A stretch of DNA of 64,000 bases from Minisyncoccota bacterium (lineage in GTDB: Bacteria > Patescibacteriota > Minisyncoccia > UBA9983). The stretch covers positions 12,801 through 76,800 of the forward strand of contig JBAZPC010000003.1 in the NCBI GenBank assembly GCA_041648395.1, in the 5' to 3' direction. Below are positions 3 to 56,352 of the stretch, piece by piece. Within the stretch, counting starts at the first letter, position 1. Every line of letters begins with the position of its first letter. The position numbers and the translations under genes were made by a program. The notes under the pieces were generated by a model. The model saw only the letters and a program-made list of their open reading frames with translations, was not told the DNA's origin and did not search any database.

Positions 3-653
3 TTGAAAGAATTTGAGGAGGTTAGAAAAAGAGACGAATTTTTTGAGAAAGAGCTGGCTGACCTCAAGCAGGCCGTCGGCTCGCTTAAAAATCTTTTGCT
101 TGAACTTGAAGAAAAAATTGACCGGGATTTTAAAGTCGGCATAGAAAAAATAAACAAAGAATTCCAGAAATTTTTTGACGAGATGTTCGGCGGGGGAAAG
201 GCAGAATTGAGAAGAGTTGCGCCAGTAAAGAGGGTAAAAAAAGAAGACCCCGAAGACCCGACGTCCGACGTCGGGGAAGTTGAGAATGAGGAAAAAGAAG
301 AGGGCATAGAAGTTTATGTGAATCTGCCGAAAAAGAGAATTCATTCTTTGGATGCGCTTTCCGGCGGGGAGAGGGCGCTCACTTCCATCGCGTTGCTTTT
401 TGCCATGTCCCAGGTCAATCCGCCGCCGTTTTTGGTTTTAGACGAAACAGACGCGGCTCTTGACGAAGCGAATTCGCAGAAGTACGGCAAGATGCTGAAT
501 AATTTGAGCAAACAAACCCAGCTTATTGTCATCACTCACAATCGCGAAACAATGAAGCAGGCGGGGATTTTGTACGGTGTGACAATGGGCTCGGACAGCG
601 TTTCTAAAATCCTCTCCATAAAATTCACCGAAGCGGAAAAAATTGTAAACTAG
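3..653 (+). CDS. smc: chromosome segregation protein SMC, C-terminal fragment (5' end outside window)
   Basis: ABC signature LSGGERALTSIALLFA, Walker B LVLDETDAALD, D-loop/H-loop ITHNRETM. Ends with TAG stop. Confidence 0.8.
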   Translation: MKEFEEVRKRDEFFEKELADLKQAVGSLKNLLLELEEKIDRDFKVGIEKINKEFQKFFDEMFGGGKAELRRVAPVKRVKKEDPEDPTSDVGEVENEEKEEGIEVYVNLPKKRIHSLDALSGGERALTSIALLFAMSQVNPPPFLVLDETDAALDEANSQKYGKMLNNLSKQTQLIVITHNRETMKQAGILYGVTMGSDSVSKILSIKFTEAEKIVN

Positions 654-8243: not shown

Positions 8244-9133
8244 CTAGTCCACTTTATATCTTTGTTTCTTTTAAACCAAGTCATTTGACGTTTGGCGTAT
8301 TGGCGGTTTTCTAAAATCATTTTTTCTAACATTTCTGTTTTATTAATCTTTCCTTGCAGAAACATTGCCGGATATTTGTATTCAAAACCGAGTTCATAAA
8401 GCCGTTTCCAACTTAATTTGGAGTCATGCAACCTTTTTGTTTCTTTAATTAAACCTTGCCGAAGCATTTTTTTAACCCGTTTTTCTATGCGTTTTTGCAA
8501 TTCTTTTTCCGGTAATTTAATGCCAATAAAAAGATACTGACTACTGACTACTGGATACTGACTACTAACTTTTGGCACCTTGCCAAGAGTTTTTGCTATC
8601 TCTATCGCCCTAATCAGCCGTCGCGGATTTTTTGCATCTATGTTTTTTGCCCTAATTGAATTTAACTTTTTCAGCATTTTGAATAATTTTTCCACAGGCA
8701 TTTTTTCCAGTTTCTTGCGCAATTTCCAATTTGGCGCCACTTCGGCGATTTGCATTCTACCCAGAAGAATATCAATGTAAAAACCAGTTCCGCCACAGAT
8801 GATCGGTGTTTTCCCGCGCGCTAAAATATCCGCAATCGCTTTCTCTCCACATCTTTTAAAGTCCAAGGCAGTAAAAATCTTTTTCGGCGAAGCAATATCA
8901 AGGCAATAATGTGACACGCCTTTCATTTCTTTTTTACTAATTTTCCCCGAGCCGATATTTAGCCCCTTATAAACCTGCCTAGAGTCAGCGGAAATAATTT
9001 CAGCTCGCCCTGACTTATCCCGAACATTGTTGAGGGAGCCGAGTCGAAGGGCAAACTTAACTGCCAGCTCGCTTTTACCAGAAGCAGTGGGTCCAATAAT
9101 GACGATAATTTTATCATTTGTCATTTTACGCAT
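8234..9133 (-). CDS. miaA: tRNA dimethylallyltransferase
   Basis: IIVIIGPTASGKSELAV P-loop, SADSRQVYKGLNIGSGKI. Contains an in-frame heptamer repeat tract. Confidence 0.85.
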   Translation of the reverse strand: MRKMTNDKIIVIIGPTASGKSELAVKFALRLGSLNNVRDKSGRAEIISADSRQVYKGLNIGSGKISKKEMKGVSHYCLDIASPKKIFTALDFKRCGEKAIADILARGKTPIICGGTGFYIDILLGRMQIAEVAPNWKLRKKLEKMPVEKLFKMLKKLNSIRAKNIDAKNPRRLIRAIEIAKTLGKVPKVSSQYPVVSSQYLFIGIKLPEKELQKRIEKRVKKMLRQGLIKETKRLHDSKLSWKRLYELGFEYKYPAMFLQGKINKTEMLEKMILENRQYAKRQMTWFKRNKDIKWTSGR

Positions 9134-9150
9134 ATGCTGAATTTGACTAA

Positions 9151-10938: not shown

Positions 10939-11937
10939 TTAATTTAATTTTTTGTTTGCGATTTCATTTAATATTTGCCATCTCCTTTTTTTCTCCTCAA
11001 TTGGCACATTGTCTTTCATTTTTGCCGCCGGGGTGCCGGGGCGGGGAGAGTATTTGCCTATATACGCCTTACTGAATTTCAGTTCCTTGAATAATTTTAC
11101 CGTATTTTGGAATTGTTCTTTTGTTTCGCCCGGAAAACCGACAATTATATCCGTTGAAATTTTTACATCTGGAATGGCCTTGCGTATTTTTTTAATTAGG
11201 TTTTTGTAATGGCTGATAGTGTATTTTCTATTCATTTTTTTAAGAATTGCGTTGTCTCCTGACTGCGCTGGCAAGTGAATTTCTCTGGAGACCTTCTTAC
11301 TTTCACTTATTGTTTTTATTAACTTATCTGAAAAATCTTTTGGATGGCTGGACATAAAATAAATTTTAAAATTGTCCGGAATATCATTAATTATTTTCAA
11401 TAATTCGGGAAAACCATATTTATAACTGTTCACATTTTGGCCCAACAGCCAAATCTCTGTTGCTTTTCCGCCAGCTGGCGGATTTACCGCGTTTTTTATG
11501 TCTTGAATTATATTTTTTGCCGGCCGCGAACGCTCGCGGCCGCGGGTGTAAGGGACCGCGCAATATGTGCAAAAATTGTCGCAACCGGTCATTATGGGAA
11601 TATAAGTGGCATTAGAATTTGAGGCGATAGGTGTTAAATCAAAATATTCATCTGGATGCCAGAATTCTATGTTTTTATTTTTAGCTAATAGTTTTTTCTT
11701 ATCTTCTTTAAGAACACATCCGGCGATAATAATTTTTTTGTTTTTTAAATTTCTAATTTTCCCATAAACTCTGTTTGTCGCTGACTGCCTTACTGAACAA
11801 GCGTTAATAACCACGATGTCCGCCGATTCCGGCTTTGCCGTCATTTTATATCCGCTCATTTCCAATTTTCTCGCTATGCGCTCGCTGTCGGCCAAATTCG
11901 CCTGACAGCCAAAAGTAATGATGTGATAGGTTTTCAT
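10939..11937 (-). CDS. MiaB/RimO-family radical-SAM methylthiotransferase (no TRAM domain)
   Basis: MTTase N-domain cysteines (FGCQAN, NACSV, AGCV). Radical SAM CDNFCTYCAVPYTRG. Start taken as MKTYHI. Contains the PPAGG palindrome. Confidence 0.8.
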   Translation of the reverse strand: MKTYHIITFGCQANLADSERIARKLEMSGYKMTAKPESADIVVINACSVRQSATNRVYGKIRNLKNKKIIIAGCVLKEDKKKLLAKNKNIEFWHPDEYFDLTPIASNSNATYIPIMTGCDNFCTYCAVPYTRGRERSRPAKNIIQDIKNAVNPPAGGKATEIWLLGQNVNSYKYGFPELLKIINDIPDNFKIYFMSSHPKDFSDKLIKTISESKKVSREIHLPAQSGDNAILKKMNRKYTISHYKNLIKKIRKAIPDVKISTDIIVGFPGETKEQFQNTVKLFKELKFSKAYIGKYSPRPGTPAAKMKDNVPIEEKKRRWQILNEIANKKLN

Positions 11938-14804: not shown

Positions 14805-15074
14805 ATGAAGCAAAAACAAAGATTGGAGCAAAAAACCACAATGAAGCAGGAATTTGATATGACTGACATGCAAAGCGTTTGCATTGGTGCTGATGTAAAG
14901 GCACAGGAACTGATTGAAAAACATAAAGGCAACAAAGGGGAGATTGAGAAAGAAATTCTTGAAATGGAAGTTCCTAAGGGAGTTGCAGATATAAAAGATT
15001 TCAATTACCGTGAAGAAATCTGGGGGGCTGCAAAATGGCTCATATCTTACTATAAACCCGGACTGGCGACTTAG
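14805..15074 (+). CDS. hypothetical small protein (89 aa)
   Basis: RBS AGGAGGG 6 nt upstream, TAG stop, strong terminator immediately downstream. Confidence 0.4.
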   Translation: MKQKQRLEQKTTMKQEFDMTDMQSVCIGADVKAQELIEKHKGNKGEIEKEILEMEVPKGVADIKDFNYREEIWGAAKWLISYYKPGLAT

Positions 15075-15095: not shown

Positions 15096-17262
15096 TATGC
15101 GGGTTATAGTTTGCGCACGATTTATTTGAACACCTTTCCGGAATTGTTTTTGTCCCCTCCATCATTAGCGAGCCGCAGGTTTTGCAAACATTTCCCGTAG
15201 GCCGTGATTTCATTATGAATCTGCATTTCGGATAATTATTGCAGGAAAAAAACGGGCCGAATTTGCCGCGGCGCTCCGTGATTTCCCCTCCGCCAGCTGG
15301 CGGATTGCATTTTGGGCATTTCACCCCCGTTTTTTCTTTTGCCTCCTGCTCCGCGCTTTTTTTAATAAATTTGCATTTCGGATAATTGTTGCAGGAAATG
15401 AATTTGCCGAAACGGCCTTCGCGTTCTATTAATTTTCCTGTCGCGCACTCCGGACACGCCTCGCCTGTTTCCTTTGGCCCTTCCATTATTGAACCGTCTA
15501 TTTTACGCGCGCCGGAGCATTTTGGAAATTTCGCGCAGCTCAAAAATCTTCCGTTGCGGGAAAGTTTTATAACCATTGGCCCTCCGCAGACGGGGCATTT
15601 GTGCTCATCGCCGGCCTCACCAAGGTTCGTTATTTTCTCCGCCGTTTTTTCTTTTAATTTCACGTCTTTGGAAAACGGTCCGTAGAAGTCCTTCAGCATT
15701 TTCTCGTATTTTCTTTTCCCTTCGGCTATTTCGTCCAGCTCTTTTTCCATCTCGGCGGTGAACGAGTCGCTGATGTATTGAGCAAAATTTTGTTCCAAGA
15801 AATCGCTTACCACTTCGCCGGTGTCGGTGGGCTTCAGCGCTCTGCCTTCTTTAATGACATAACCGCGGTCGTTGATTGTTTTTATTATTGAAGCGTAAGT
15901 GCTCGGCCGGCCGATGTCTCTTTTCTCCAACTCCTTGATTAGGCCCGCCTCGGTGTATCTCGGCGGCGGCTCGGTTTGCTTCCCTTCGCTTCCAATATTC
16001 AATAACTCCAAAGATTCTCCTTTTGTCAGCTTCGGCAACTCCACATCCTCTCCGCGCGCCGCTGGATCGGCGACAAGCCAGCCAGGGAAAATCATAATAC
16101 TGCCGTTTGCGGAAAAATTTGGAATTTCTCCTTCATCTATATTGGCGCTCACTTTTGTCCGCAGAATTTTCGCGTCCGCCATCTGCGAGGCGACAGTTCT
16201 CTCCCAAATGAGTTTGTAAAGTTTTTTCTGCTCGTCGTTCGCGCCGGCGGATTTCATTCCGAAATTTGTCGGCCGTACCGCTTCGTGCGCTTCCTGCGCC
16301 GTTTTGCTTTTTGACGCGTAGGTACGTGGCAACAAAAATTCTTTTCCGAATTGTTTTTCAATCGTCGCGTAAATTTGCGGTAGCGCTTCTTTGCTGACAT
16401 TTACGCTGTCGGTTCTCATGTAAGTGATAAGACCTTGTTCGTAAAGTTTTTGGGCGACGGACATCGTGCGCGACGGCGCGTATCCCAAGCGCGAGCTGGC
16501 GGTTTGCTGGAGAGTTGAGGTAATGAACGGCGGCCGCGGCGAACGCTTTGCTTCGGTTTGGGTTACATCAACTATTTGCCATTTATTTTTTTTGGCGGCT
16601 TCAATAATTCTTTCCGTTTCTTTTTCGTTTTTTGGCTGTTCATCGCAAGTGAGAATTATTTTATCTTTATTTTCAGTGGAAAATTCTCCGCTTATTACCC
16701 AAAAATTTTCCGGAACAAAAGCGCGAATTTCGCGTTCGCGTTCCATAATTATGCGCAGGGCGGGGGATTGCACACGCCCCGCGGATAGCCCGTAACGGAC
16801 TTTTTTCCATATCAAGCCACTCAAATCGTAGCCGACCAGGCGGTCCAAAACACGGCGCGCCTCTTGCGCCTTCACTAAATCCGCGTCAATATCGCGCGGA
16901 TGTTTTATTGCTTCTTTTATCGCGCTTTCGGTAATTTCGTTAAAAACGATGCGTTTCGGTTTTTTCAGCTCACATGCTTCTTTGATGTGCCAGGCAATCG
17001 ATTCTCCCTCGCGGTCGGGGTCGGTGGCGAGAATGACTTCGCTGGCTTTCTTTGAGAGATCTTTTATTTCTCTGATGACTTTTTCTTTTCCGTGAGAGAT
17101 TTCATAGCGGGGAACAAAGCCGGCAGGGATGTCGATGGCCGTCTTGTTGCTTTTCGGCAGATCGCGAACATGCCCCACGCTGGCGCGGATAATATATTCG
17201 TCTCCCAAATATTTTGAGATTGTTTTTGTTTTTGTCGGCGATTCAACAATAACTAGTTTCAT
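15088..17262 (-). CDS. topA: DNA topoisomerase I with multiple C-terminal zinc ribbons
   Basis: TOPRIM start MKLVIVESPTKTKTISKYLG, catalytic Tyr region, C4 zinc-ribbon repeats. Contains the PPAGG palindrome. Confidence 0.9.
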   Translation of the reverse strand: MKLVIVESPTKTKTISKYLGDEYIIRASVGHVRDLPKSNKTAIDIPAGFVPRYEISHGKEKVIREIKDLSKKASEVILATDPDREGESIAWHIKEACELKKPKRIVFNEITESAIKEAIKHPRDIDADLVKAQEARRVLDRLVGYDLSGLIWKKVRYGLSAGRVQSPALRIIMEREREIRAFVPENFWVISGEFSTENKDKIILTCDEQPKNEKETERIIEAAKKNKWQIVDVTQTEAKRSPRPPFITSTLQQTASSRLGYAPSRTMSVAQKLYEQGLITYMRTDSVNVSKEALPQIYATIEKQFGKEFLLPRTYASKSKTAQEAHEAVRPTNFGMKSAGANDEQKKLYKLIWERTVASQMADAKILRTKVSANIDEGEIPNFSANGSIMIFPGWLVADPAARGEDVELPKLTKGESLELLNIGSEGKQTEPPPRYTEAGLIKELEKRDIGRPSTYASIIKTINDRGYVIKEGRALKPTDTGEVVSDFLEQNFAQYISDSFTAEMEKELDEIAEGKRKYEKMLKDFYGPFSKDVKLKEKTAEKITNLGEAGDEHKCPVCGGPMVIKLSRNGRFLSCAKFPKCSGARKIDGSIMEGPKETGEACPECATGKLIEREGRFGKFISCNNYPKCKFIKKSAEQEAKEKTGVKCPKCNPPAGGGEITERRGKFGPFFSCNNYPKCRFIMKSRPTGNVCKTCGSLMMEGTKTIPERCSNKSCANYNPHKK

Positions 17263-18151: not shown

Positions 18152-18271
18152 AATTACTATTCTAGCATATCAACTTAGTTTTTATTAAAATCTTTTTTAT
18201 ATCTTCCGCCAGTTAGCCAAATCACGCATATGCGGAAAATGACTAACTGAATTAGGTAAACTTGCAAAATT

Positions 18272-21531: not shown

Positions 21532-23268
21532 CTAGAATTTATAAATAAATATTGACGAGCCTGCTCGAGCAACCGGTTCTTTTCCTTTCAGCCAGGAATA
21601 AGTGTCATCCGGTTTTATCGTGAATCCGCGCACAGGTTTTGCTATTGAGCCCTCGCGGGCGTTGGCGGATATGGCAAACCACGAGCCGGCGGACGGCTGA
21701 CCTTTTGATGACCACCAATCCTCATATTTGTCGCCGAAATAATATTTGCCGTCGCCGCCGCCGAAATAATGCAAATCAATTTTGTTGACGCTGTTCTCGT
21801 CCATCCAATCGCGCAGCCGCTTCATATCCTGTCCCCAGTCGTAATTTGAGTCGGTGGCGATTTTATAACCGTTGGCCGTACCGCCGGCAAGAATATTGTA
21901 ATAAGAAAGATAGTAAGGATAAGTGACGATTGTTGAAATAAACATAACGGCAAGCAAAATCCCCGTGAGTATGGTTTTGTTAAATTTGGCTATCACTAGC
22001 GCCACTAAAAAATAAGCGAAGGGCAGAATCGGCATAATGTGACGATGGCCGATATTTAAATTTCCGGTGATTGATTGGAAAACGTAGAAGGCGATAAAAA
22101 ATAAACTGGCGATGATGGTAAAATTATTCTTCATCCATTCGCGCGAAAAAGTTGAGCGCCCTCCTGCGCGGGCAAGAGAAATACTTTTTATGGCAAAGAA
22201 AATGGCGATAATAGTGAGAATATGAAAAATCAAACTTTCTTTGAATAGATAAAGGGTCGGGAAATACCATGGCGTCGCTTCGGAATAAACCGTTCCCATA
22301 AAATGCGAAGCGTTTCCTCCGCCCGCGCGTTGAACCACGGAAACGACGCCGAACAAATATTCAGCCAATGGTTTCAAAACATTCGTTCTTATCATCCACG
22401 CAAACGCAGGCATTGTTTTTCTGCCTAAATTGGAAGAGAGGGTGTCGCTTATGTCTTTTATTTGCAGGTCGCTCGGATAATTCCAGACGTGAAAAATATA
22501 AACAATATAAACAAGCGCCAAAGCAATCAATCCAATCATAATTATTTTCCAGAGTAAAGATAAAATTTTTCCCCTGTTAAGAATCCACCACAGCGCGACA
22601 AGGACAAAAAATATGGGCGCCAGGATGACGGTGGAAAATTTAAAAAGCAAGGCGACGCCCAAAAGCGCGCCGGCGATAAAAACATTTCTCCACGACTGAT
22701 TTTTTAAAAAAGCCAAAAAAGAGGCGATGGCGATAAAAAATCCGAAGGCCGCCGCCATGTCCGTGGTGACGTAGCGCGAGTGGGCGATGATGGTTGGTGA
22801 CATAGTGAAAAGGAAAAGTGTGAGAAAGCCAACTTTATCTCCGTAATTTTTTCGCGTCCAATAAAACAAAATCGCGCCGAACAAAACGGCAAGCAGTATC
22901 ATAGGCAGGCGGGCGAGACGGATTATTTTATCCGCGTCATTACCCGCTCGGTATAGAAAAATCTTTCCCATATCCCATTGGCGGCTAGAAATTTTTTCGC
23001 TCCAAGTCGGAATGTTTGTCGGAAAATTAAGATTTAAAAACATAAGCGGAAGAGCGGAAATGTCTTTCATTAACGGCGGGTGTTCAGGATTGAGGCGCAT
23101 ATCTTTCTGTGTCAGATAGGAATAGCCGGCGGGGATGTGCGCCACTTCGTCAAAAGTGGCAGTTTCGTCCCAAGCGGAAAGGAACGACAGCGCGAACATC
23201 AGCGCCAGCAGGCCGCCCGCGGCGATCCGCCAGCCGGCGGATACAAAATTGTTTTTTATTTTATCCAT
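21532..23268 (-). CDS. GT-C family membrane glycosyltransferase (PMT/ArnT-like)
   Basis: ~12 predicted TM helices and a C-terminal soluble domain. Tandem with a second GT-C gene. Confidence 0.6.
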   Translation of the reverse strand: MDKIKNNFVSAGWRIAAGGLLALMFALSFLSAWDETATFDEVAHIPAGYSYLTQKDMRLNPEHPPLMKDISALPLMFLNLNFPTNIPTWSEKISSRQWDMGKIFLYRAGNDADKIIRLARLPMILLAVLFGAILFYWTRKNYGDKVGFLTLFLFTMSPTIIAHSRYVTTDMAAAFGFFIAIASFLAFLKNQSWRNVFIAGALLGVALLFKFSTVILAPIFFVLVALWWILNRGKILSLLWKIIMIGLIALALVYIVYIFHVWNYPSDLQIKDISDTLSSNLGRKTMPAFAWMIRTNVLKPLAEYLFGVVSVVQRAGGGNASHFMGTVYSEATPWYFPTLYLFKESLIFHILTIIAIFFAIKSISLARAGGRSTFSREWMKNNFTIIASLFFIAFYVFQSITGNLNIGHRHIMPILPFAYFLVALVIAKFNKTILTGILLAVMFISTIVTYPYYLSYYNILAGGTANGYKIATDSNYDWGQDMKRLRDWMDENSVNKIDLHYFGGGDGKYYFGDKYEDWWSSKGQPSAGSWFAISANAREGSIAKPVRGFTIKPDDTYSWLKGKEPVARAGSSIFIYKF

Positions 23269-34991: not shown

Positions 34992-36250
34992 ACTCGGAAG
35001 AAAAAATTTTTGATGTCGTTGTCGTGGGCGGCGGGCCGGCCGGAATGATGGCGGCCGGCCGGGCGGGTGAATCGGGAGCCAGCGTCGCGCTCTTGGAAAA
35101 AAATAACGCCTTGGGCAGAAAACTTTTACTGACGGGAAAAGGCAGATGCAATATCACGCGGGCGGAATTTGACCCCAAAGATATTATTAAAGAACTGGGC
35201 AAGGAAGGAGATTTTCTCCGCCACGCTTTGTCTGTTTTTGGGACAAGAGAGACGGTTGATTTTTTTGAGAAAAACGGACTGAAAACAAAAGTTGAAAGAG
35301 GTAAAAGAATTTTTCCCCAAAGCGGCGAGGCCGGCGACGTTTTAAAAATTCTAGCCGCATATTTAAAACAAAATAAAGTGAAAATGATGCTTGGCGCGGA
35401 GGTTAAGGAAATCGCGGTTGATAAAAACAAAAAAAAGATTTCAAAAATAATTTTACAAAATGGCGAAGAAATTTACGCGAAAAATTTTATCATTACGACC
35501 GGCGGGAAGTCCTATCCCGGCACCGGTTCCACTGGCGACGGCTATAGATGGATGGGAAAAATTGGCCACACTATTGTTGAAACGAGGCCGGCTTTGGTTC
35601 CCGTGGCAATCAAGGAAAGTTGGCCGAAAGTGGCGCAAGGGTTGTCTCTAAAAAATGTCGGATTATCCGTTTTTCAAAACGGCAAAAAGAAAGCCAGCCG
35701 TTTTGGGGAACTTCTTTTTACTCATTTCGGGTTAAGCGGCCCCATTGTTTTGGATTTGAGCGGGGAGATCGGCGCGCTTTTGAAAAAGGGCGCCGTTAAA
35801 TTATTTCTTGATTTGAAACCCGCGTTGGATTTTCAAACAATGGATAAAAGATTGCAGAATGATTTTTCCAAATACAGCAATAAATTTTTTAAAAATTGCC
35901 TGGATGATTTGCTCCCCAAAAAAATGATTCCGGTTATTGTTGAATTATCAGGAATTCCTGCGTTGAAGAAAGTTAACGAAATAACAAAACAGGAAAGGCA
36001 GAAATTGGTTAAGTTGTTGAAGGGACTGGAAATGACCGCTGGTTCTCTTTTGGGCATGGAGACGGCGATAATCACATTGGGCGGAGTTTCTTTGAAAGAA
36101 ATAGACGCCAAGACGATGAAATCAAAACTGATTGAAAATTTATTTTTTGCCGGAGAAATAATAAATTTACACGGCCCGACCGGCGGTTATAATTTGCAAA
36201 TTTGCTGGAGCACCGGCCGTCTCGCCGGCCAAACCGCGGGAAAAGTTTAA
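34988..36250 (+). CDS. HI0933/BaiN-family FAD-dependent flavoprotein
   Basis: FDVVVVGGGPAGMMAA dinucleotide fold, then LLLTGKGRCNIT. Confidence 0.75.
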   Translation: MNSEEKIFDVVVVGGGPAGMMAAGRAGESGASVALLEKNNALGRKLLLTGKGRCNITRAEFDPKDIIKELGKEGDFLRHALSVFGTRETVDFFEKNGLKTKVERGKRIFPQSGEAGDVLKILAAYLKQNKVKMMLGAEVKEIAVDKNKKKISKIILQNGEEIYAKNFIITTGGKSYPGTGSTGDGYRWMGKIGHTIVETRPALVPVAIKESWPKVAQGLSLKNVGLSVFQNGKKKASRFGELLFTHFGLSGPIVLDLSGEIGALLKKGAVKLFLDLKPALDFQTMDKRLQNDFSKYSNKFFKNCLDDLLPKKMIPVIVELSGIPALKKVNEITKQERQKLVKLLKGLEMTAGSLLGMETAIITLGGVSLKEIDAKTMKSKLIENLFFAGEIINLHGPTGGYNLQICWSTGRLAGQTAGKV

Positions 36251-37604: not shown

Positions 37605-37869
37605 ACAATTAAATTTATCCTTTTCGCAACCCATTTCGGCGAGCGAGTAGGTAATTAGGCAAAAGTAATGTTGCATTTTTCAGCGATAGCATAATTTTGC
37701 AACAATATTTATTAATCGACTTGCGATATCAGTTTTTAAAAACTCAAATCAAATTAGTCATTTTCTGCATATGCTGGATTTGACTAATCTTAATATGACC
37801 CACAAACTGACTTACGATGTCGGTTTTTTGTATTTATGGCGGGATTTTGTTATCATTTTATTTAATCTT

Positions 37870-39011: not shown

Positions 39012-39626
39012 ATGAAAAACTTGATAAAAGAATTAATTTCTTCCGGGTATCTCAAGACGTCGCGGCTTATTGAGGCGTTTCAAAAAATAGACAGAAAGGA
39101 CTTTGTGCCGGAAAAAATAAAAGATGAGGCCTACATGAATTCCGCTTTGCTTATCGGCCACGGCCAAACGATTTCCCAGCCGTTGACTGTCGCTTTCATG
39201 CTGGAGTTATTGCAGCCGGAAGAGGGGAATAAAATTATGGAAATCGGCTCCGGTTCGGGATGGCAGACGGCGTTGCTGGCTTCGGCGGTGGGGGATAAAG
39301 GCAAAGTGCTTGCCATAGAACTTATTCCCGAATTGTGCGCTTTTGGAAAGAAAAATGTTTTAAAATACGATTTTATTAAAAAGGGTGTCGTTAAATTTTT
39401 CTGTTTCAATGCCGCAAAAGGCCTGCCGGAAGAAGCGCCTTTTGACAGAATAATTTCCGCCGCCTCGGCGGAAGAAATTCCCAAGGCGTGGAAAGAGCAG
39501 TTAAAAATAGGCGGAAGAATGGTTTTGCCGATAAAAGACGCTGTGTATTTGCTTATCAAAAAAAGCGAAGATAAATTTGAAGAACAAGTTTTCCCTGGTT
39601 TCGCTTTCGTGCCGTTTGTAGTATAA
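39012..39626 (+). CDS. pcm: protein-L-isoaspartate O-methyltransferase
   Basis: IGHGQTISQPLTVAFMLELL, EIGSGSGWQTALLA SAM-binding motif. Confidence 0.85.
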   Translation: MKNLIKELISSGYLKTSRLIEAFQKIDRKDFVPEKIKDEAYMNSALLIGHGQTISQPLTVAFMLELLQPEEGNKIMEIGSGSGWQTALLASAVGDKGKVLAIELIPELCAFGKKNVLKYDFIKKGVVKFFCFNAAKGLPEEAPFDRIISAASAEEIPKAWKEQLKIGGRMVLPIKDAVYLLIKKSEDKFEEQVFPGFAFVPFVV

Positions 39627-41550: not shown

Positions 41551-42442
41551 ATCTATTACCCCTCAAAAAATCTTCATAAAGCATTTCGTTTTTGCCTTCC
41601 GGTTTGACGCGTTTGATGGCGAGTTTACCGTCTTCTATTTCTACTTCGGTTATTATGATTCTTTTGCCGTGCCCGCCATCGCTACGCTCAGGCGTTGCGG
41701 GCGGGTTGTTTAGAAAAAAATAAGTCCCAGGCCATGGAGTTAGAGCGCGGACTTTGCGCGCGATGTTTTCCGCCGGCTCGTTCAAATTTATTAAGCTGTC
41801 TTCTTTTGTTATTTTTTTGGTGAAAGTCGCTTGGCTATGATCTTGCTCTTGCGTCTTTATTTTTCCTTCAATCCAATCGGGAATAACTTTCACAAGCAGC
41901 TCACCACCTAACTCCGCCAGTTTTTCTTCCAACTCTTTGTGATATAACTTGGAACTTAGAGCTTGGAGCTTGGAGCTTGCGACAATGTCGCCGTGGTCAA
42001 CTTCCTCGTCTATTTTTATTATCGTCACCCCCGTTTCTTCTTCATCGCTCAAAATAAATGACTGGATAGGCGAGGGACCGCGGAATTTCGGCAGAAGAGA
42101 AGGATGGACATTAAGCGCGCCGTATTTCGGAATGTTTAAAATTTCAAGAGGAATAATTTTGCCGTAATCGGCGACAATGAATAGGTCTGGCTTGAATCTT
42201 GAAACTTGAATCATGAAACTCGAATCTAGTTTATCTGGCTGGTCTAATTTTATGTTCCATGTTTTATGTTCCATGTTCCATAACTTTACCGGTGACGGCT
42301 GGAGTTCCATTTTTCTGCCTTTTGGCTTGTCGGGCGTGGTGACAACCAATTCCGGTACAAAGCCGTTCTGGCATAAAACTTCCAAAACCTTCGCGGCAAA
42401 ATCCCCGGTGCCAAAAAAAACGAATTTAACGCCGTTTTTCAT
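41537..42442 (-). CDS. fmt: methionyl-tRNA formyltransferase
   Basis: VKFVFFGTGDFAAKVLEVL. Formyltransferase core HPSLLPKFRG. Carries a GC-rich in-frame element and heptamer repeat tracts. Confidence 0.8.
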   Translation of the reverse strand: MKNGVKFVFFGTGDFAAKVLEVLCQNGFVPELVVTTPDKPKGRKMELQPSPVKLWNMEHKTWNIKLDQPDKLDSSFMIQVSRFKPDLFIVADYGKIIPLEILNIPKYGALNVHPSLLPKFRGPSPIQSFILSDEEETGVTIIKIDEEVDHGDIVASSKLQALSSKLYHKELEEKLAELGGELLVKVIPDWIEGKIKTQEQDHSQATFTKKITKEDSLINLNEPAENIARKVRALTPWPGTYFFLNNPPATPERSDGGHGKRIIITEVEIEDGKLAIKRVKPEGKNEMLYEDFLRGNRSTKP

Positions 42443-42546
42443 ATTTTTAGTATTATAAAATTTTATCAGCTTTCTTTCCTAGTGGCAAATTTTAGCAAAA
42501 AAATAAAAGAGGCTAGGTAGTCCAAGCCTCTTTTACAGACCTCCTT

Positions 42547-42909
42547 TTAATTTAATGATAAGAAAGTTTTTATGGGCCCGTAATCTCCTATATGCCCACT
42601 ATAGCCCTTATTGTCTCTAATTGTATCTAAACCGTTTCTGCTATCAACCTTTTGCCAATCGTTGTTTTCATAAAATTCTCTTGGAAGTTTCATTTTTGGT
42701 GCTTCTAACCAGGCAGTATATACATTTAGAGACTCGTGATAAGACACCTCAATAATCTCAAGTTCTTCTACCATGCACTCCAAATTCATCTTCATTCCCG
42801 CATAGACAATTGGCAGTTCTATTAATTTTCTACACAATGAATAATCGTTTTTTCTATCATCTTTTTCATTATCTGGACGAAAAATTACAATAACCCTCAT
42901 TTTATTCAC
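42547..42909 (-). CDS. hypothetical protein (120 aa)
   Basis: Strong RBS GGAGGTG. No motif. Confidence 0.4.
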   Translation of the reverse strand: MNKMRVIVIFRPDNEKDDRKNDYSLCRKLIELPIVYAGMKMNLECMVEELEIIEVSYHESLNVYTAWLEAPKMKLPREFYENNDWQKVDSRNGLDTIRDNKGYSGHIGDYGPIKTFLSLN

Positions 42910-43075
42910 CTCCCCCTCATCATTTATTTTTAAGATGCGAAAATCGCACTTTACTTTCTATAAAATAGTGTAGCAAATTACGCAACAAAAGTCAATATCA
43001 AGCAATATTATAATTGGACAAAATTCTGCTATCGCCGAAAAGTGTCCAAGTGCCAAAAAATAAATACTTTCTACT

Positions 43076-43624
43076 TTATACTTTATACTTCTCTAGAATT
43101 TCCGCTTTGTCTGTAAATATAATTCCATTTAGGTGGTCTGTTTCGTGCTGGATTATTTGCGCCAAGAGACCGGAGGCGCCACGGGTGAATTTTTTGCCGT
43201 TTTCATCATATGCTTCCACGGACAATTTATCCGCGCGTTTTACCGTGCCAAACATTCCCTCCACACTCAAACATCCTTCGCCGACAACCTGTTTCTTTTT
43301 TGATATTTTTTTAATAACGGGATTTATAAAAACCCACGGGTCGGTTTTCTCTTTCTTTTTTTGTCTCTGACGTCCGACATCGGGGCTATCAGGACTCGAT
43401 GTCGGACGTCGAGGGATGAGGGCGTTCTTATCTATAATAAAAAGGCGGACAGATTCGCCGATTTGCGGCGCCGCCAAGGCCACGCCGTTTTCCGCGAGAG
43501 ACAAAACGTCGGACATCTTCTTAATCAAGTCCTTTATTTTTTTCTCTTTAATATCCTTCACCGGCACTTCCTTCGCAATTTGCCGAAGAACCTTATTTCC
43601 TTTTTGTACGATTTTTGCAATCAT
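43076..43624 (-). CDS. def: peptide deformylase with a 14-codon palindromic insertion
   Basis: GVALAAPQIG, EGCLSVEG, HETDHLNG motifs. Insert RRPTSSPDSPDVGRQ is encoded by a 42-nt foldback. Confidence 0.85.
   Translation of the reverse strand: MIAKIVQKGNKVLRQIAKEVPVKDIKEKKIKDLIKKMSDVLSLAENGVALAAPQIGESVRLFIIDKNALIPRRPTSSPDSPDVGRQRQKKKEKTDPWVFINPVIKKISKKKQVVGEGCLSVEGMFGTVKRADKLSVEAYDENGKKFTRGASGLLAQIIQHETDHLNGIIFTDKAEILEKYKV
43369..43410. repeat. 42-nt foldback inside def: 14-bp perfect inverted repeat GACGTCCGACATCG / CGATGTCGGACGTC with a 14-nt loop
   Basis: A related 19-bp palindrome CCCGACGTC-C-GACGTCGGG lies at 257-276 inside smc. Confidence 0.8.
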
Positions 43625-43634
43625 GTTTTGTAAA

Positions 43635-45494
43635 TTATAGCAAACTTTCGGGGTCTATGTTTATTTTCCACGCCGGAGACAAGGAAGAAAGAATTTCCCG
43701 CAGTTCTTTTTGCCCGGCGGGCCAGGTGCCCTGCTCCACTTTCAATAAAATATTCCAGATGTATTTATTTTTTATTTTTGGCGTAAAAGAGGAATAACTT
43801 ATCGGCTTCCATTTGGCAAGCCGTTTTTCCAATTCATCTATGTCTTTTTTAAGCTTGGGCTTATTTTTATTTTCTCCCGTAATTTTAATGAGCAAGGAGA
43901 ACGGCGGGTAATCGGATTCCTTTCTAGACTCTATTTCCGCTCTGTAAAACCCCGAAACATTTCCCTTTATTGCCTCTTCAAACACTTTTTGCTCCGGCAT
44001 TTTTGTTTGTATGTAAAATTTTTTCTTTGCCAGCAATTTCAGTTTTATGAGAAGCTGAAAAATTTTTTCATTTATTTTGAAATCAGGCAAGGTGAAAAGG
44101 GGATCAATGGAGGCGACGGCAACAACATCAACCAGCTTGTCCGCCAGCTGGCGGAGATAAGAAAACATTATTTCCGTTCCTATTAAAATTGCCCCGGGTG
44201 TTGCCAAAAAACTATCCGCTATTTCTCTACCTTGTTTTTCCGTTTTTATGGCGTCGCTGTCCATTATAAATATCTTTGCTTGCGGGAATGATTTCTTTAT
44301 TTCCTCGGCTGTTTTTCTTATACCTGCGCCATATTCTTCAAGTTTCCAGCTTTGGCAGGAAGGACATTTTTCAGGTGTAATAGTTTCTTTCAGGCATTTA
44401 TGGCAAAGCCACACTCCGCCAGCTGGCGGATTTCCTTCTTTTTTATGAAGGACAAGCGGCGATTCGCATTTTTCGCATAAAACAGGACGGGAACAGTCTT
44501 TGCACACCGTGATGGGCGAATACCCCCGCCGGTTGGAGAATAAAATTATTTTTTCTTTTTTTTCTACGGCCTCGCCGATTTTCTTTTTCAATTCGTCTTC
44601 GCCGATTACCGCCTGCTCAATTTCCGAAAAAATTCTCCGACCGGCCGTGAAGTTATTTCTATGGCAAGTTTCCGCTCTCAAAACGACATCTCCGAAAATA
44701 AGGCGAACCCCTCTTTTTTGAGCGATGAATTCCGCCACTTTTCTCACGTCAATGTACGGTCTAGTTTGAAGCTTGTAAAAAGGCGAGCTTTCTTTGTCTA
44801 TTATCAAAGTACCGATGTCTTCTCTAGGTAAAGAAAGAAACGACCTAGTGGTGGCTATAAGAAGCGGATGTTCTTCTTTTAAGGCGAAAGACCATAACTC
44901 TTTTATTTTTTTCTTTTTTAATCCGAAGTGCATTACTATGGCGTACCTTTCTATACCCTTTTGCAGTTCAGGAAAAATATTTTCCATATCGGCCGCCGTC
45001 GGCAGGCAGAGAAAAATGGAACGATTCCTAGCAAATTCTTCACGGGTGATTCTTTTGTAATATTGGATTCTTTCTTCTCTGTCTCCCTGAAAAAGAACGG
45101 TCTCGTGATATTTATTCGCGCCGGCGTCTGATTCCGTTTGGCTAGAATTTGACGCCGCCGGGTCTTCCAAAATTATTTGAGGCACAAGATCTTTAATGAC
45201 TGACCCGACCGGCGCTAGAAAATAATTTGATATCCCCTTGCACGCTTCCATAAATTTCGGCAAAAGAAATTTTTCTGCCTTTACCGTTTTTATTGATTTG
45301 AGAGAAAAATCCGCCCGGCGCAAATCCGTTTTCGCCGTTCTCAATTCCTGCGAGGAGACGACTATGGCCGGAATTATTTTTTTGCGCACCGGCACTGTGA
45401 CCAAAGCGCCCGCTTCAATGTTTTTTGAAGTGAAATAAGAGAGGTTTTCCCTAAAAACTCCTTTAGTAATCGGCACGACACTTAGAATCCTCAT
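43635..45494 (-). CDS. priA: primosomal protein N' (PriA helicase)
   Basis: Helicase motifs (GVTGSGKT-like, DEEH), Cys4-Cys4 zinc-binding region CKDCSRP...CEKC...CHKC...CPSC. PPAGG palindrome between the Cys pairs. Confidence 0.85.
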   Translation of the reverse strand: MRILSVVPITKGVFRENLSYFTSKNIEAGALVTVPVRKKIIPAIVVSSQELRTAKTDLRRADFSLKSIKTVKAEKFLLPKFMEACKGISNYFLAPVGSVIKDLVPQIILEDPAASNSSQTESDAGANKYHETVLFQGDREERIQYYKRITREEFARNRSIFLCLPTAADMENIFPELQKGIERYAIVMHFGLKKKKIKELWSFALKEEHPLLIATTRSFLSLPREDIGTLIIDKESSPFYKLQTRPYIDVRKVAEFIAQKRGVRLIFGDVVLRAETCHRNNFTAGRRIFSEIEQAVIGEDELKKKIGEAVEKKEKIILFSNRRGYSPITVCKDCSRPVLCEKCESPLVLHKKEGNPPAGGVWLCHKCLKETITPEKCPSCQSWKLEEYGAGIRKTAEEIKKSFPQAKIFIMDSDAIKTEKQGREIADSFLATPGAILIGTEIMFSYLRQLADKLVDVVAVASIDPLFTLPDFKINEKIFQLLIKLKLLAKKKFYIQTKMPEQKVFEEAIKGNVSGFYRAEIESRKESDYPPFSLLIKITGENKNKPKLKKDIDELEKRLAKWKPISYSSFTPKIKNKYIWNILLKVEQGTWPAGQKELREILSSLSPAWKINIDPESLL

Positions 45495-50903: not shown

Positions 50904-51926
50904 ATGTCATTAAGTATTGGTATTGTTGGGCTTCCTAATGTCGGTAAAAGTACGCTTTTTAAGGCGTTGACGAAGAAACAAGTTGATATTGCTAATTATC
51001 CTTTTTGCACTATTGACCCGAATGTCGGCGTGGTGCAGGTGCCGGACCCTAGACTTGCCAAACTCTCGGAGTTTAGCAAGTCGGGCAAGACGGTGCCGGC
51101 AGCCATTGAATTTGTGGACATCGCCGGTTTGGTGAAAGGCGCGGCGGAAGGGGAGGGGCTGGGAAATAAATTTTTGTCGCACATTCGCGAAGTGGACGCC
51201 ATCTGCGAAGTGGTGCGCGCGTTCAAGAATGACAACATCATTCACGTTCACAATAAAATTGACCCGGAAAATGACATCGGAGTTATTGAAACGGAACTTA
51301 TTCTTGCTGATTTGGAAACAGCGACAAAACGACTGGGAACCTTGGAAAAAGAGGTGCGTTCGCTGGACAAGGAGGCGATCAAGAAACAGGAAATCGTAAA
51401 AAAAATTAAAGCGGGGCTGGAGGCGGGGAAGCCGGCAAGGGGAATTGTTTCTCCTGACGAATTTATTTTAGTAAAAGATTTGCAACTACTTACTTTTAAG
51501 CCGATTCTTTATGTTTACAATGTTTCTGGTGATGAACCGACGCCCGGCGTCGGTTTAAAGCTAGATATTAAAACAGAAGAGGATTTAATGGACATGAGCG
51601 AAGAAGAAAAAAAAGAGCTGGGCGTGGAAAGCAATATTGATAAATTAATTATAGAAGCGTATAAATTACTCGGCCTGATGACTTTTTTCACGACGGGCGA
51701 GGATGAGAGTCGCGCGTGGACGGTCAAAATCGGTTCAACGGCGCCGGAGGCGGGCGTCGCCATTCACACCGACTTCAAGGAAAAATTTATCCGCGCCGAG
51801 GTGATAAATTGGCAGGATTTGCTCAACGCCGGATCCTACGCCGCCGCGCGCGAAAAAGGCCTCATCCGCACCGAGGGCAAAACTTATGTCGTCAAAGACG
51901 GGGATGTGATAGAGTTTAAAATATGA
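50904..51926 (+). CDS. ychF: ribosome-binding ATPase YchF
   Basis: GIVGLPNVGKSTLF, DIAGLVKGA, C-terminal TGS GDVIEFK. Confidence 0.85.
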   Translation: MSLSIGIVGLPNVGKSTLFKALTKKQVDIANYPFCTIDPNVGVVQVPDPRLAKLSEFSKSGKTVPAAIEFVDIAGLVKGAAEGEGLGNKFLSHIREVDAICEVVRAFKNDNIIHVHNKIDPENDIGVIETELILADLETATKRLGTLEKEVRSLDKEAIKKQEIVKKIKAGLEAGKPARGIVSPDEFILVKDLQLLTFKPILYVYNVSGDEPTPGVGLKLDIKTEEDLMDMSEEEKKELGVESNIDKLIIEAYKLLGLMTFFTTGEDESRAWTVKIGSTAPEAGVAIHTDFKEKFIRAEVINWQDLLNAGSYAAAREKGLIRTEGKTYVVKDGDVIEFKI

Positions 51927-53838: not shown

Positions 53839-56352
53839 ATGAATCCGTACAGCCATAAAAAAATTGAAAAGAAGTGGCAAAAGTATTGGGAGAAAAATAA
53901 ACTTGACCAGGCGAAAGATTTTTCCAAAAGGCCTAAATATTATTGTCTCGTAGAATTTCCTTATCCGTCGGGAGACGGCTTGCATGTAGGCCACACTCGA
54001 AGCTATACTGCCATGGATATAATTGCCCGCAAAAGAAGAATGCAGGGCTACAACGTGCTTTATCCCATGGGCTGGGACGCTTTCGGTTTGCCGACGGAAA
54101 ATTACGCTATTAAAAAAGGAGTTCACCCAAGCGTTATTACAAAAAAGAATACAGATAATTTTAGAAGGCAATTAAAATCATTAGCTTTTTCTTTTGATTG
54201 GAGCAGGGAAATAAATACTACCGACCCGAAATATTATAAATGGACGCAGTGGATATTTTTGCAGCTTTTTAAGAAGGGCTTGGCGTACAAGCATAAAATG
54301 CCGATAAACTGGTGCTTGTCTTGCAAAGTCGGTTTGGCGAACGAGGAGGTGGTGGACGGCAAGTGCGAGCGTTGCGGGGGGCAGACGGAAAAAAGGGAAA
54401 AAGAGCAATGGATGTTGGCCATAACGAAATACGCCGACCGGCTAGATAAGGATTTGGATCCGCCAGCTGGCGGATTAGATTATCTGGAAAAAATAAAAAT
54501 CCAGCAGAGAAATTGGATAGGGAAATCAGAAGGAGCGGAGATTGAATTCAAGATTCAAGATTCAAGTTTCAAGTTTCAAGTTTTTACCACACGCGTTGAT
54601 ACTATTTTTGGTTGCACTTATGTAGTTGTTGCGCCCGAGCATGAGATAATCTCAAAACTAAAATCGCAAATATTAAATCTGAGCGAAGTTGAAAAATATA
54701 TTAATGAAGCGAAAAGAAAATCAGACCTGCAAAGGACGGAATTGCAAAAAGAAAAAACTGGCGTTGAATTGAAGGGCATGAAAGCCATTAATCCTTTCAA
54801 TAATGAAGAAGTGTCGGTGTTTGTGGCGGACTATGTTTTGGGGCATTATGGCACAGGCGCGGTAATGGCCGTCCCCGCGCACGACGAACGCGATTTTGAA
54901 TTCGCGAAGAAATATGGATTACCGGTGCGGCAATCGGTCGCCAGAAATTCTAATTTCTTAAGGACGGACGACGAGGGAAATCCTACGAAATCAGAAATTT
55001 CTGGCTCCCTTAGTGAGTGTTTTGTTGAAGATGGCGTCCTTGCTGATTCCGGCCAGTTTTCCGGCCTGACTTCTGCCGAGGCGTGCGGGGAGATGGTGAA
55101 ATGGCTGGAGGAAAAGAAGTTGGGGAAAAAAGTGGTTAAATTTCACTTGCGCGACTGGGTTTTCTCCCGCCAGCATTATTGGGGCGAGCCGATACCGATA
55201 GTGAATTGTCCAAAATGCGGCCTAGTACCGGTGCCGGAAAAAGATTTGCCGGTAAAATTGCCTGATGTAAAAAAATACGAACCGACTGACACGGGCGAAT
55301 CGCCGTTGGCGGCTATTTTAAAATGGGTGAATGTAAAATGCCCGAAGTGCAAAGGTCCGGCAAAAAGGGAAACCGACACCATGCCAAACTGGGCGGGATC
55401 GTCTTGGTATTATCTCGCATATTTAATGCTCGAAAATAAAAAATCAAATCTCAAAAATCAAAAATATGTTTGGGATAAGAAAAAATTAAAATATTGGATG
55501 CCCGTTGATTGGTACAACGGCGGAATGGAGCACACAACTTTGCATTTATTATATTCACGATTTTGGAATAAATTTTTATTTGACATCAAGGCGGCGCCGA
55601 CAAGCGAGCCGTATAAAAAAAGAACTTCGCATGGAATGATACTTGGACCGGACGGAGAGAAGATGTCCAAGTCGCGCGGCAATGTGATAAATCCGGACGA
55701 TATGGTTTCCGCTTATGGCGCAGACGCTTACCGTTTGTACCAAATGTTTATGGGGCCGTTTGATCAAGCGATACCATGGGACCCGAAAGGCATTGAAGGC
55801 ACGAGTAGGTTTTTGGGAAGAGTGTGGAAGTTGTTATCAGCCGTCAGCTATCAGTCGTCAACCAAAGAGCAAAAGCTGAAAGCTGAAAGCGGAAAGCTGA
55901 AGACTTTATTGCACAAAACCATCAAAAAAGTTTCTGAAGATATTGAAAGCATGCGGTTCAACACAGCTGTCAGTTCACTCATGATTTTATCAAACGAGAT
56001 GGAGAAACAGGAAGAAATACTGACTACTGATTACCTAATACTGGTTACTCTTTTAAGTCCTTTTGCTCCTCATATCTGCGAAGAAATTTGGAGCAAGCTT
56101 GGTAACAAAAAATCAATCTTTTTGGAAAAATGGCCGAAGTTTGATTCCCAAAAAATAAGAGAAGATAGTTTTGAATTGGTGATGCAAGTGAACGGCAAAG
56201 TGAGAGACAGGTTTGAGGCGCCGACGGATATTTCCGAAAATGACGCCATGTTATTGACATTGAAACGCGAAAATGTTAAAAAGTGGATAGGCGATAAACA
56301 AGTCAAAAAAGTCATATTTATCCAAAATAAGCTGATAAATTTAATAGCATAA
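53839..56352 (+). CDS. leuS: leucyl-tRNA synthetase
   Basis: HVGHTRSYT (HIGH), KMSKS. Editing domain. Carries the 18-bp palindrome and two heptamer tracts. Confidence 0.9.
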   Translation: MNPYSHKKIEKKWQKYWEKNKLDQAKDFSKRPKYYCLVEFPYPSGDGLHVGHTRSYTAMDIIARKRRMQGYNVLYPMGWDAFGLPTENYAIKKGVHPSVITKKNTDNFRRQLKSLAFSFDWSREINTTDPKYYKWTQWIFLQLFKKGLAYKHKMPINWCLSCKVGLANEEVVDGKCERCGGQTEKREKEQWMLAITKYADRLDKDLDPPAGGLDYLEKIKIQQRNWIGKSEGAEIEFKIQDSSFKFQVFTTRVDTIFGCTYVVVAPEHEIISKLKSQILNLSEVEKYINEAKRKSDLQRTELQKEKTGVELKGMKAINPFNNEEVSVFVADYVLGHYGTGAVMAVPAHDERDFEFAKKYGLPVRQSVARNSNFLRTDDEGNPTKSEISGSLSECFVEDGVLADSGQFSGLTSAEACGEMVKWLEEKKLGKKVVKFHLRDWVFSRQHYWGEPIPIVNCPKCGLVPVPEKDLPVKLPDVKKYEPTDTGESPLAAILKWVNVKCPKCKGPAKRETDTMPNWAGSSWYYLAYLMLENKKSNLKNQKYVWDKKKLKYWMPVDWYNGGMEHTTLHLLYSRFWNKFLFDIKAAPTSEPYKKRTSHGMILGPDGEKMSKSRGNVINPDDMVSAYGADAYRLYQMFMGPFDQAIPWDPKGIEGTSRFLGRVWKLLSAVSYQSSTKEQKLKAESGKLKTLLHKTIKKVSEDIESMRFNTAVSSLMILSNEMEKQEEILTTDYLILVTLLSPFAPHICEEIWSKLGNKKSIFLEKWPKFDSQKIREDSFELVMQVNGKVRDRFEAPTDISENDAMLLTLKRENVKKWIGDKQVKKVIFIQNKLINLIA
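54458..54475. repeat. 18-bp perfect palindrome ATCCGCCAGCTGGCGGAT inside leuS (encodes DPPAGG)
   Basis: Self-complementary. Related copies at 11468-11483, 15289-15304, 44415-44430, 62793-62809. Confidence 0.85.

Follow-up and report, generated by a model that had tools for sequence, protein, structure and literature searches.

The 64,000-nucleotide (nt) stretch analyzed here (the window; positions 12,801 to 76,800 of contig JBAZPC010000003.1 in assembly GCA_041648395.1, from a Minisyncoccota bacterium) carries the peptide deformylase gene def on its minus strand (43076 to 43624; 182 amino acids [aa]), and the longest perfect hairpin of the window lies inside this gene. The hairpin (positions 43369 to 43410) reads GACGTCCGACATCG-GGGCTATCAGGACT-CGATGTCGGACGTC, with complete arm complementarity (14/14) and a 14-nt loop, as a model reading the letters alone had described it (the original prediction). 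At this site def is the sole long open reading frame (ORF). Its product is 100% identical to NCBI entry MFA4890302.1 ("peptide deformylase [Candidatus Paceibacterota bacterium]"), retains all three catalytic motifs intact, and has plant PDF1A (1zxz; E = 1.9e-26) as its best relative in the PDB. The same protein sequence, on a contig of 87,691 nt, is on record at NCBI, JGI, and ENA and in an independent Logan assembly, which makes an artefact of assembly unlikely.

The 42 nt keep the reading frame and contain no stop codon, running from codon position 2 of R72 to codon position 1 of Q86. They touch 15 residues (R72 to Q86; RRPTSSPDSPDVGRQ), placed between Def motif 1 (GVALAAPQIG) and motif 2 (EGCLS). 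An earlier statement that the element is exactly 14 codons long was right about its length and about the peptide; the 42 nt are not aligned to codons. With the frame intact, no stop, and the motifs kept, the 42-mer is presumably translated as part of Def. The sense-strand RNA hairpin has a predicted free energy of -29.3 kcal/mol (z, -6.6), and that of the DNA hairpin is -18.6 kcal/mol (z, -8.4).

Each arm belongs to a quasi-palindromic unit of 15 to 17 nt, and the foldback is an inverted doublet of that unit on the minus strand. Unit 1 (sense, TCGACGTC-C-GACATCG; 43397 to 43412) consists of the sense 5' arm plus 2 nt and encodes R-R-P-T-S, and unit 2 (sense, CCGATGTC-G-GACGTCAG; 43367 to 43383) encodes P-D-V-G-R. 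The 14-nt spacer between them (sense, AGTCCTGATAGCCC; 43383 to 43396, minus strand) and the 4 nt that follow it make up an imperfect tandem repeat of 9 nt (AGTCCTGAT/AGCCCCGAT, i.e., SPD-SPD; 43379 to 43396); no second copy of the spacer beyond chance was found in the window. Neither strand has a terminator-like site at the palindrome, and there is no U-tract, the sense strand continuing as AGAGACAAAAAAAG. An Rfam scan of positions 42000 to 45000 gave nothing at the palindrome, its sole match being a subthreshold L20-leader (42495 to 42615; E = 0.27). Between def and fmt, which are adjacent in relatives, lies a 120-aa ORF without a Pfam match (42547 to 42909).

The def palindrome is real and statistically solid. 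Dinucleotide shuffling produced a stem of at least 14 bp once in 100 trials, and shuffling within local blocks did so once in 180. Taken as a class, perfect hairpins rich in GC (stem of at least 9, loop of at most 16) numbered 8 in the window versus 0.4 to 0.5 expected (approximately 16-fold); two of the eight (at 15062 and 18744) resemble ordinary terminators, and the others are intragenic. Short palindromes (stem of at least 7, loop of at most 4, GC of at least 0.7) were likewise in excess (13 observed; 1.4 to 2.4 expected), as were CCGAC..GTCGG pairs at most 40 nt apart (8 observed; 0.8 expected). Composition, global or local, was rejected as the cause of the hairpin enrichment because the block shuffles gave an equally low expectation.

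Some GC-rich perfect palindromes of the window fall within conserved protein motifs, namely, RGRERSRP of a MiaB-like protein (11521 to 11542), GxGxxG of an HI0933-like flavoprotein (35034 to 35060), and ISAASAE of a PCMT protein (39455 to 39473). The last of these is present as a perfect 9-bp stem in two relatives (L003 and L106; relatives are given by L or P numbers throughout).

Relatives of the def arms are found in two other genes of the window. In smc, a 19-nt palindrome (CCCGACGTC-C-GACGTCGGG; 257 to 275, plus strand), read as P-T-S-D-V-G, constitutes a single unit; it had been reported as spanning 257 to 276, and the palindrome is real although its span is 1 nt shorter. The associated 9-nt tandem repeat (GAAGACCCC/GAAGACCCG, i.e., EDP-EDP; 243 to 260, plus strand), which extends into the left arm, and the acidic peptide DPEDPTSDVGEV were also found as described. 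In ychF, the unit is AACCGACGCC-C-GGCGTCGGTT (51535 to 51555, plus strand), read as (E)PTPGVG(L). The string GACGTCCGAC(R)TCGGGG, previously noticed in both smc and def, is indeed common to them: on the plus strand, a def arm with three loop bases (GACGTCCGACATCGGGG) and the smc sequence (GACGTCCGACGTCGGGG) agree at 16 of 17 nt, and the def sense sequence TCGACGTCCGACATCGAG agrees with the smc unit of orthologue L107 (TCGACGTCCGACGTCGGG) at 16 of 18 nt. On the basis of these alignments, each def arm is nearly a copy of the whole smc palindrome (CGACGTC-C-GACGTCG), which makes the 42-mer an inverted doublet of that unit. Whereas smc is read on the plus strand, def is read on the minus strand, and the best match is that of the smc sense strand with the def antisense strand. 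Since the match is closest between opposite coding strands, the relationship is one of DNA and not of peptide. A nucleotidyltransferase/HepT toxin-antitoxin pair (695 to 1322) adjoins smc.

The units in smc, both def arms, and ychF have a common architecture, CCGAC-xyz-N-z'y'x'-GTCGG. A search for the 15-nt unit CGACGTCCGACGTCG with at most 3 mismatches identified four sites in three genes (smc, both def arms, and ychF at 51538 to 51552), with 8 strand-specific matches in the window versus 0.67 expected; the arm thus has relatives elsewhere in the window, as the original prediction anticipated. Apart from the center base, the ychF 21-mer is the same as both tandem units in the Def loop of relative L004 (AACCGACGCC-A-GGCGTCGGTT, twice; 42 nt). 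The earlier proposal of a third family of in-frame GC-rich palindromic insertions therefore survives as to the family, but not as to its separateness, given the architecture in common with the ychF/L004 type. All copies of the family are read with codon position 3 opposite codon position 3, which is the phase that constrains the protein least.

The two def arms carry a private G>A variant as a complementary A/T pair (CGACGTCCGAC-A-TCG in unit 1; CGA-T-GTCGGACGTCG in unit 2), suggesting that the arms were copied from one another and not inserted separately. The 9-nt tandem repeats that adjoin both the def (SPD-SPD) and the smc (EDP-EDP) palindromes fit slippage at hairpins; minus one repeat copy, the def element would shrink to 33 nt with a 5-nt loop and so resemble the hairpins of relatives L007 and L026. 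Three viral-contig matches to the def hairpin core and to the 18-mer ATCCGCCAGCTGGCGGAT, all in phage contigs of 57 to 70% GC, were treated as chance.

In an alignment of 33 Parcubacteria Defs, the stretch from "IIDKNAL" to "DPWVFINP" is hypervariable in both length and sequence, and the remainder is well conserved. Solved Defs (best match, 1zxz) have alignment gaps in the same stretch. In the best AlphaFold model (mean predicted local distance difference test score [pLDDT], 78.5; predicted template modeling score [pTM], 0.76), the other four models being poor, this stretch is coil between strand 61-65 and strand 96-107, with a pLDDT of <50 at residues 74 to 88, a low-confidence loop with which the encoded segment R72 to Q86 coincides. 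The alignment and the model bear out the original placement of this in-frame, GC-rich segment in a loop between conserved Def motifs, and they indicate that the 42-mer encodes a disordered Pro/Ser/Thr/Asp/Gly linker in a variable loop. The R72 to Q86 segment recurred in none of 119 other Def homologues (0/119), which agrees with the original prediction.

In many lineages, the Def loop is a hot spot for palindromes. Six of 77 distinct def genes carry a GC-rich palindrome (stem of at least 9) in the variable loop (8.0 kb in total) and none carries one in the remaining 36.4 kb, and three more Def-loop palindromes of lower GC were present in L006, L026, and L028. In addition to the tandem units of L004, the loops contain related sequences in L006 (a single unit, AACCGACAC-CTA-GTGTCGGTT) and in L047 (GCTCCGACC-CT-GGTCGGAGC). 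Perfect palindromes with sequences unrelated to the window family occupy the loops of L007 (CGAAGGTCGGACCTTCGCC-aactc-GGCGAAGGTCCGACCTTCG; 19-bp stem; itself a doublet of CGAAGGTC-N-GACCTTCG), L026/L028 (CGCAAAGGACCCTCCTTTG-cattcta-...; 19- to 21-bp stem), L085 (CCTCCCCCGA-acc-TCGGGGGAGG), and L096 (CCCTCTCCTT-gta-AAGGAGAGGG).

Palindromes were also seen in fmt of other Parcubacteria. Those of the form CCTCCCCCT(A/T)..AGGGGGAGG occur at one position in L040 (1905 to 1926), L047 (2331 to 2354), L049 (2730 to 2752), and L074 (3997 to 4019). A palindrome with a 14-bp stem crosses the conserved GRG...SP motif (GRGLQMQASP) in fmt of L059 (10695 to 10724), where the length is unchanged. Outside long ORFs, a 35-nt perfect palindrome (CGGGTGTTGGACACCTG-t-CAGGTGTCCAACACCCG; 17-bp arms and a 1-nt center) is present in the related Parcubacteria L058 (6256 to 6290) and L061 (12014 to 12048).

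The closest def orthologues (L001 to L003; 79 to 86% aa identity; approximately 83 to 85% nt identity outside the loop) have no palindrome. Relative to L001 (85% aa identity), the window def has a net gain of 12 nt (MAFFT gap) within a patch of approximately 48 nt that is approximately 40% identical, and the outer codons P-x-R-P and G-(K/R) look homologous. Excision of exactly 42 nt gives ALIPQRQKKKEKTDPW, equal in length to the short loop of L105 (ALLSRDKEGKKKTDPW), and a clean 42-nt insertion would hold only against short-loop relatives of this kind. Across the Def loop, L001 and L002 are approximately 74% identical (our count from the sequences), compared with approximately 40% for the window loop and L001, indicating that the window lineage underwent a burst of change and not gradual drift. 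Compared position by position with the L004 doublet, which also encodes 14 residues, the window segment is identical at 7 of 14 residues and 22 of 42 nt. A neighbor-joining tree of def plus the PriA 3' end was star-like (17 to 25% divergence) and does not separate loss of an old doublet from repeated gains. A comparison of L026 with L028 for compensatory changes was set aside, since these sequences (96% identical) are too close to inform.

The smc palindrome is kept at 19 of 20 nt in orthologue L107 (83% nt identity overall), with indels in both flanks; since the whole of it is kept there, it is old and not a recent insertion. Orthologue L108 has the right half alone (GGCGTCGGGGA, GRCGTCGGGGA), L006 has GACGAAGGAGAA, and the left arm is new. 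The ychF palindrome is kept at 20 of 21 nt in L110 (86% nt identity), P0242 and P0258 keep (P/L)TPGVG, and the version in L109 is nonpalindromic. According to these alignments, some lineages keep the units as islands of conservation amid loops rich in indels, and in other lineages the units have decayed or are missing. The word "insertion" in the original prediction would accordingly hold against L105 (42 nt) but not against L001 (+12 nt net), nor for the smc palindrome, which is old in L107. The ychF loop after LYVYN is itself hypervariable, with inserts of 20 to 60 residues that carry a "..FS.(T/P)...G(N/K)DS+.Q" module, possibly another recurrent insert, in several lineages (P0247, P0248, P0255, P0267, P0285, P0291, and P0325; alignment columns 225 to 300).

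A second family consists of the perfect palindromic 16-mer TCCGCCAGCTGGCGGA, with five copies in the window, four of which read N/D-P-P-A-G-G. The copies lie in the MiaB-like gene (11467 to 11482), in the TopA zinc ribbon (15289 to 15304), in PriA (44140 to 44155), in the PriA zinc-binding loop (44415 to 44430, minus strand), and in LeuRS (54458 to 54475); a one-base variant is present at 23225 to 23242, and relative L007 has a copy at 2564 to 2579. At one PriA site, the window has a copy where L001 and L007 have none and L003 has a decayed one; at another, L007 has a copy, that of L003 is decayed, and neither the window nor L001 has one. At a third PriA site, a near-palindrome of L001 (TCCGCCAGCCGGCGGA) is perfect in the window through one C>T substitution, which costs a Pro residue (Pro>Leu). 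Read together, the PriA sites and the 16-mer copies show that repeat families and the "perfection" of palindromes coexist in this genome.

Imperfect palindromes of approximately 36 nt were also found between genes (9117 to 9150, 18210 to 18249, and 37753 to 37788; consensus, TTAGTCA-N7-GCATATGC-N7-TGACTAA). They adjoin miaA/xerC-like, dprA, and SpoU-methylase genes and have the appearance of operators for a single regulator.

The best explanation of these results is that the def 42-mer is a palindromic repeat at the DNA level that is unneeded for deformylase chemistry. More specifically, it may well be a translated repeat doublet in a disordered loop, similar to the paired repetitive extragenic palindromes (REPs) known as REPINs or to the Rickettsia palindromic elements (RPEs), with its arms kept identical by hairpin-templated copying. 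Palindromes would arise or land widely and would survive only in loops tolerating extra residues, which would make the Def loop a hot spot; selection would leave palindromic DNA in tolerant loops and in the 3-3 codon phase. The def arms would have been copied from each other by hairpin-templated synthesis (i.e., intrastrand template switching or conversion). Such copying would keep the arms perfect, and lineages losing the pairing would decay to a Glu/Lys-rich linker. Candidate routes of spread between loci are hairpin-specific transposition of the HUH type, as by REP-associated tyrosine transposases (RAYTs), and ectopic templated copying. Template switching has been documented in other systems (PMC5453318, PMC8794818), and earlier work proposed that it acts on coding palindromes (PMC6649704).

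Several observations weigh against this explanation. A Pfam scan of the 59 window ORFs found no transposase, RAYT, IS200/IS605 TnpA, or DNA methyltransferase. The def flanks (...TTGTCTCT / GAGGGATG...) contain no direct repeat that would represent a target-site duplication, the closest orthologue (L001) has no clean empty site, and no further exact copy of the def-arm 14-mer exists in the 64 kb. The exact ychF 21-mer was absent from the genomes of the candidate phyla radiation (CPR) among 185,579 species representatives; the copy number would therefore be low, or the units would diverge fast. That scan, made with AACCGACGCCNGGCGTCGGTT, returned 16 matches, all in Pantoea, Salinivibrio, and other non-CPR genomes, and, as the source metagenome-assembled genome was unmatched, has little bearing on copy number. 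Nine units aligned in one register do remain symmetric through two-sided changes (pair 8-12, C-G in four sequences and T-A in four; pair 7-13, A-T in L006), which favors the explanation, but this count is biased because the sequences were picked for being palindromes. The right half of the smc palindrome looks ancestral in the orthologue alignment, which would fit local inverted copying as well as insertion. Finally, perfect palindromes lasting across 15 to 30% nt divergence could equally mean selection for function.

Of the alternatives, a local origin survives best, although we consider it rather unlikely. According to this explanation, template switching perfected an ancestral quasi-palindrome in a relaxed loop, and the resemblance to smc and ychF reflects Pro...Gly codon constraints or chance, with no mobile or common family playing a part. 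The P-x-R-P and G-(K/R) codons are common to L001, which has a weak quasi-palindrome (5/8 pairs) of the same geometry, and a single substitution sufficed at the third PriA site. Perfect palindromes also occur in conserved motifs without length change (GRGLQMQASP in Fmt of L059, RGRERSRP in MiaB, and PCMT), and the mechanism has precedents (PMC5453318, PMC8794818). A template-switch product should have one ancestral arm and one copy of it; the right arm of smc, ancestral in L108 and L006 and accompanied by a new left arm, conforms to this expectation, but no clear ancestral def arm is evident relative to L001 to L003. Neither def arm aligns convincingly with the DNA of these orthologues (5 of 13 to 14 positions), which leaves a one-step template-switch origin unsupported. 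Moreover, the identities of def with smc (16/17) and of ychF with L004 (20/21) lie well outside what chance would give (after multiple comparisons, roughly 1e-3 or less) and are not explained by codon constraints, and the five identical 16-mer copies demonstrate that true repeat families exist in this genome.

It is distinctly unlikely that the palindromes are functional DNA sites, either bound by a dimeric protein (parS, NBS, or matS type, or an operator) or serving as DNA uptake signals, placed in coding loops of a genome that is approximately 92% coding. Sites of this kind would account for the conserved islands in hypervariable loops (smc, 19/20; ychF, 20/21) and for symmetry kept through two-sided changes. 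Units with 1-nt centers make no good RNA hairpins, and any function would hence have to reside in the DNA; the window encodes ParB, SMC, and DprA, and the 16-mer family, at five to six copies per 64 kb, has a density like that of known chromosomal site families. One binding protein is nevertheless hard to reconcile with Def-loop sequences that differ wholly between lineages (CGAAGGTC..., CAAAGGACCC..., CCTCCCCCGA...), and the close relatives L001 to L003, L105, and L106 lack a palindrome in the Def loop. DNA uptake sequences occur at approximately 1 copy per kb, mostly as single nonpalindromic copies. In the window, GACGTCCGAC occurs within palindromes only, and the density is approximately 1 per 16 kb, far below that of uptake sequences.

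We regard as very unlikely a regulatory mRNA hairpin in def that slows ribosomes, stabilizes the transcript, or provides an RNase site, thereby tuning Def or the downstream Fmt. The strong RNA fold (-29.3 kcal/mol; z, -6.6) and the location of def and fmt on the same strand speak for such a hairpin; its lack in the closest orthologues, the lack of a U-tract and of an Rfam match, the weak hairpins that are all the 1-nt centers of the sister units in smc and ychF allow, and the unrelated sequences at the same Def-loop position in other lineages speak against it. Chance or an assembly artefact is extremely improbable: one of 100 shuffles did give a 14-bp stem, but the enrichment of the class and the family relations argue against chance, and the recovery of the same protein from NCBI, JGI, ENA, and Logan with an intact ORF argues against an artefact.

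CPR bacteria (Patescibacteria) have tiny genomes that are approximately 92% coding and are considered poor in mobile or repetitive DNA. Here, GC-rich palindromes are strongly enriched, in families, within essential genes of a CPR genome, apparently as translated loop segments, and our literature searches found no report of coding palindromes or REPs in CPR bacteria. We tentatively suggest that Paceibacteria and other Parcubacteria may harbor families of ultrasmall palindromes (units of 15 to 21 nt and doublets of 42 to 45 nt) that spread between loci, are kept perfect by templated copying, and remodel disordered loops of essential proteins (Def, Fmt, SMC, YchF, PriA, TopA, and LeuRS), or else chromosomal protein-binding sites located in coding loops for want of intergenic DNA. 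If the palindromes do spread or are actively maintained, they would offer a naturally occurring and tractable example of bacterial coding palindromes, a mechanism behind the many loop insertions of CPR proteins that lack an explanation, and a marker for strain-level population genetics. If self-propagating, they would rank among the smallest DNA elements known to propagate themselves and would be a specific source of variation in the protein loops of CPR bacteria; should they be binding sites instead, they would hint at a chromosome-organizing system not yet known. For annotation, such inserts are neither frameshifts nor assembly errors.

Several known classes of elements can be compared with the def 42-mer. 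Miniature inverted-repeat transposable elements have terminal inverted repeats and a target-site duplication, and intrinsic terminators or attenuators have a GC-rich hairpin followed by a U-tract; the def element has neither combination. The small dispersed repeats of cyanobacteria, reportedly described by Elhai et al. in 2008, and HIP1 are similar to the present units in being very short, overrepresented palindromes that are intragenic and conserved beyond background. HIP1 (GCGATCGC) and the cyanobacterial repeats are covered in previous reports (PMC5861425, PMC4390886). HIP1 is an 8-mer that occurs approximately once per gene and leaves the number of codons unchanged; the present units exceed it in length, are much less frequent, and are tied to loop-length changes. 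The GC clusters of yeast mitochondria include optional GC-rich palindromes in var1, and their mobility by gene conversion was shown experimentally. They are similarly GC-rich palindromes (30 to 50 bp) in an AT-rich genome, optional among strains and able to be coding; they differ in their organelle setting and in that mobility is demonstrated only there. Coding palindromes of Nematomorpha mitochondria are either perfect or absent, with dynamic gain and loss and a codon-phase bias, and template switching or conversion has been proposed for them (Mikhailov et al. 2019, PMC6649704). They too are perfect inverted repeats within translated genes, but they reach 284 bp, lie over conserved protein regions, and form no sequence families, whereas the palindromes here are short, lie mainly in disordered loops, and have sequence in common between loci.

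RPEs, selfish elements reportedly described by Ogata et al. in 2000, are approximately 100 to 150 bp and decay after insertion. As with RPEs, palindromic DNA lies in frame in housekeeping genes of a reduced genome, is apparently translated, falls in surface loops, and is present or absent among relatives; in def, the ORF is intact and the predicted loop covers residues 74 to 88, consistent with an in-frame surface site that is presumably translated. The differences are the size of the elements here (units of 15 to 21 nt; doublet of 42 nt), their perfect arms, and their lack of sequence similarity to RPEs. RPE-4 and RPE-6 have been equated with CGTC REPs, REPs being defined by a conserved unpaired tetranucleotide head, GTAG or CGTC (PMC3733652). 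Here, CGTC occurs only in the paired stem, and no unpaired head is conserved among the nine aligned units. REPs have stems of 8 to 9 bp with loops of 4 to 5 nt, whereas the present units are perfect palindromes with centers of 1 to 3 nt. REPs occur in tens to hundreds of copies per genome; four of the present units were found in the 64 kb, a low copy number so far. The cognate RAYT of REPs, a Y1 HUH transposase, is not among the 59 window ORFs. REPs are extragenic, unlike the four units and the 16-mer family (six copies), every one of which is inside an ORF, although some REPs are intragenic and translated, adding 20 to 30 residues (Di Nocera et al. 2013, PMC3733652). REPINs consist of two inverted REP units with a short spacer, which form a longer hairpin (Bertels and Rainey 2011, PMC3116915). 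The likeness to these systems lies in short (15 to 40 nt) GC-rich palindromic units present in several copies and in their arrangement as inverted doublets with a short spacer: the def 42-mer comprises two inverted units of 15 to 17 nt and a spacer of 12 to 14 nt, and similar doublets are present in the Def loops of L007 and L026.

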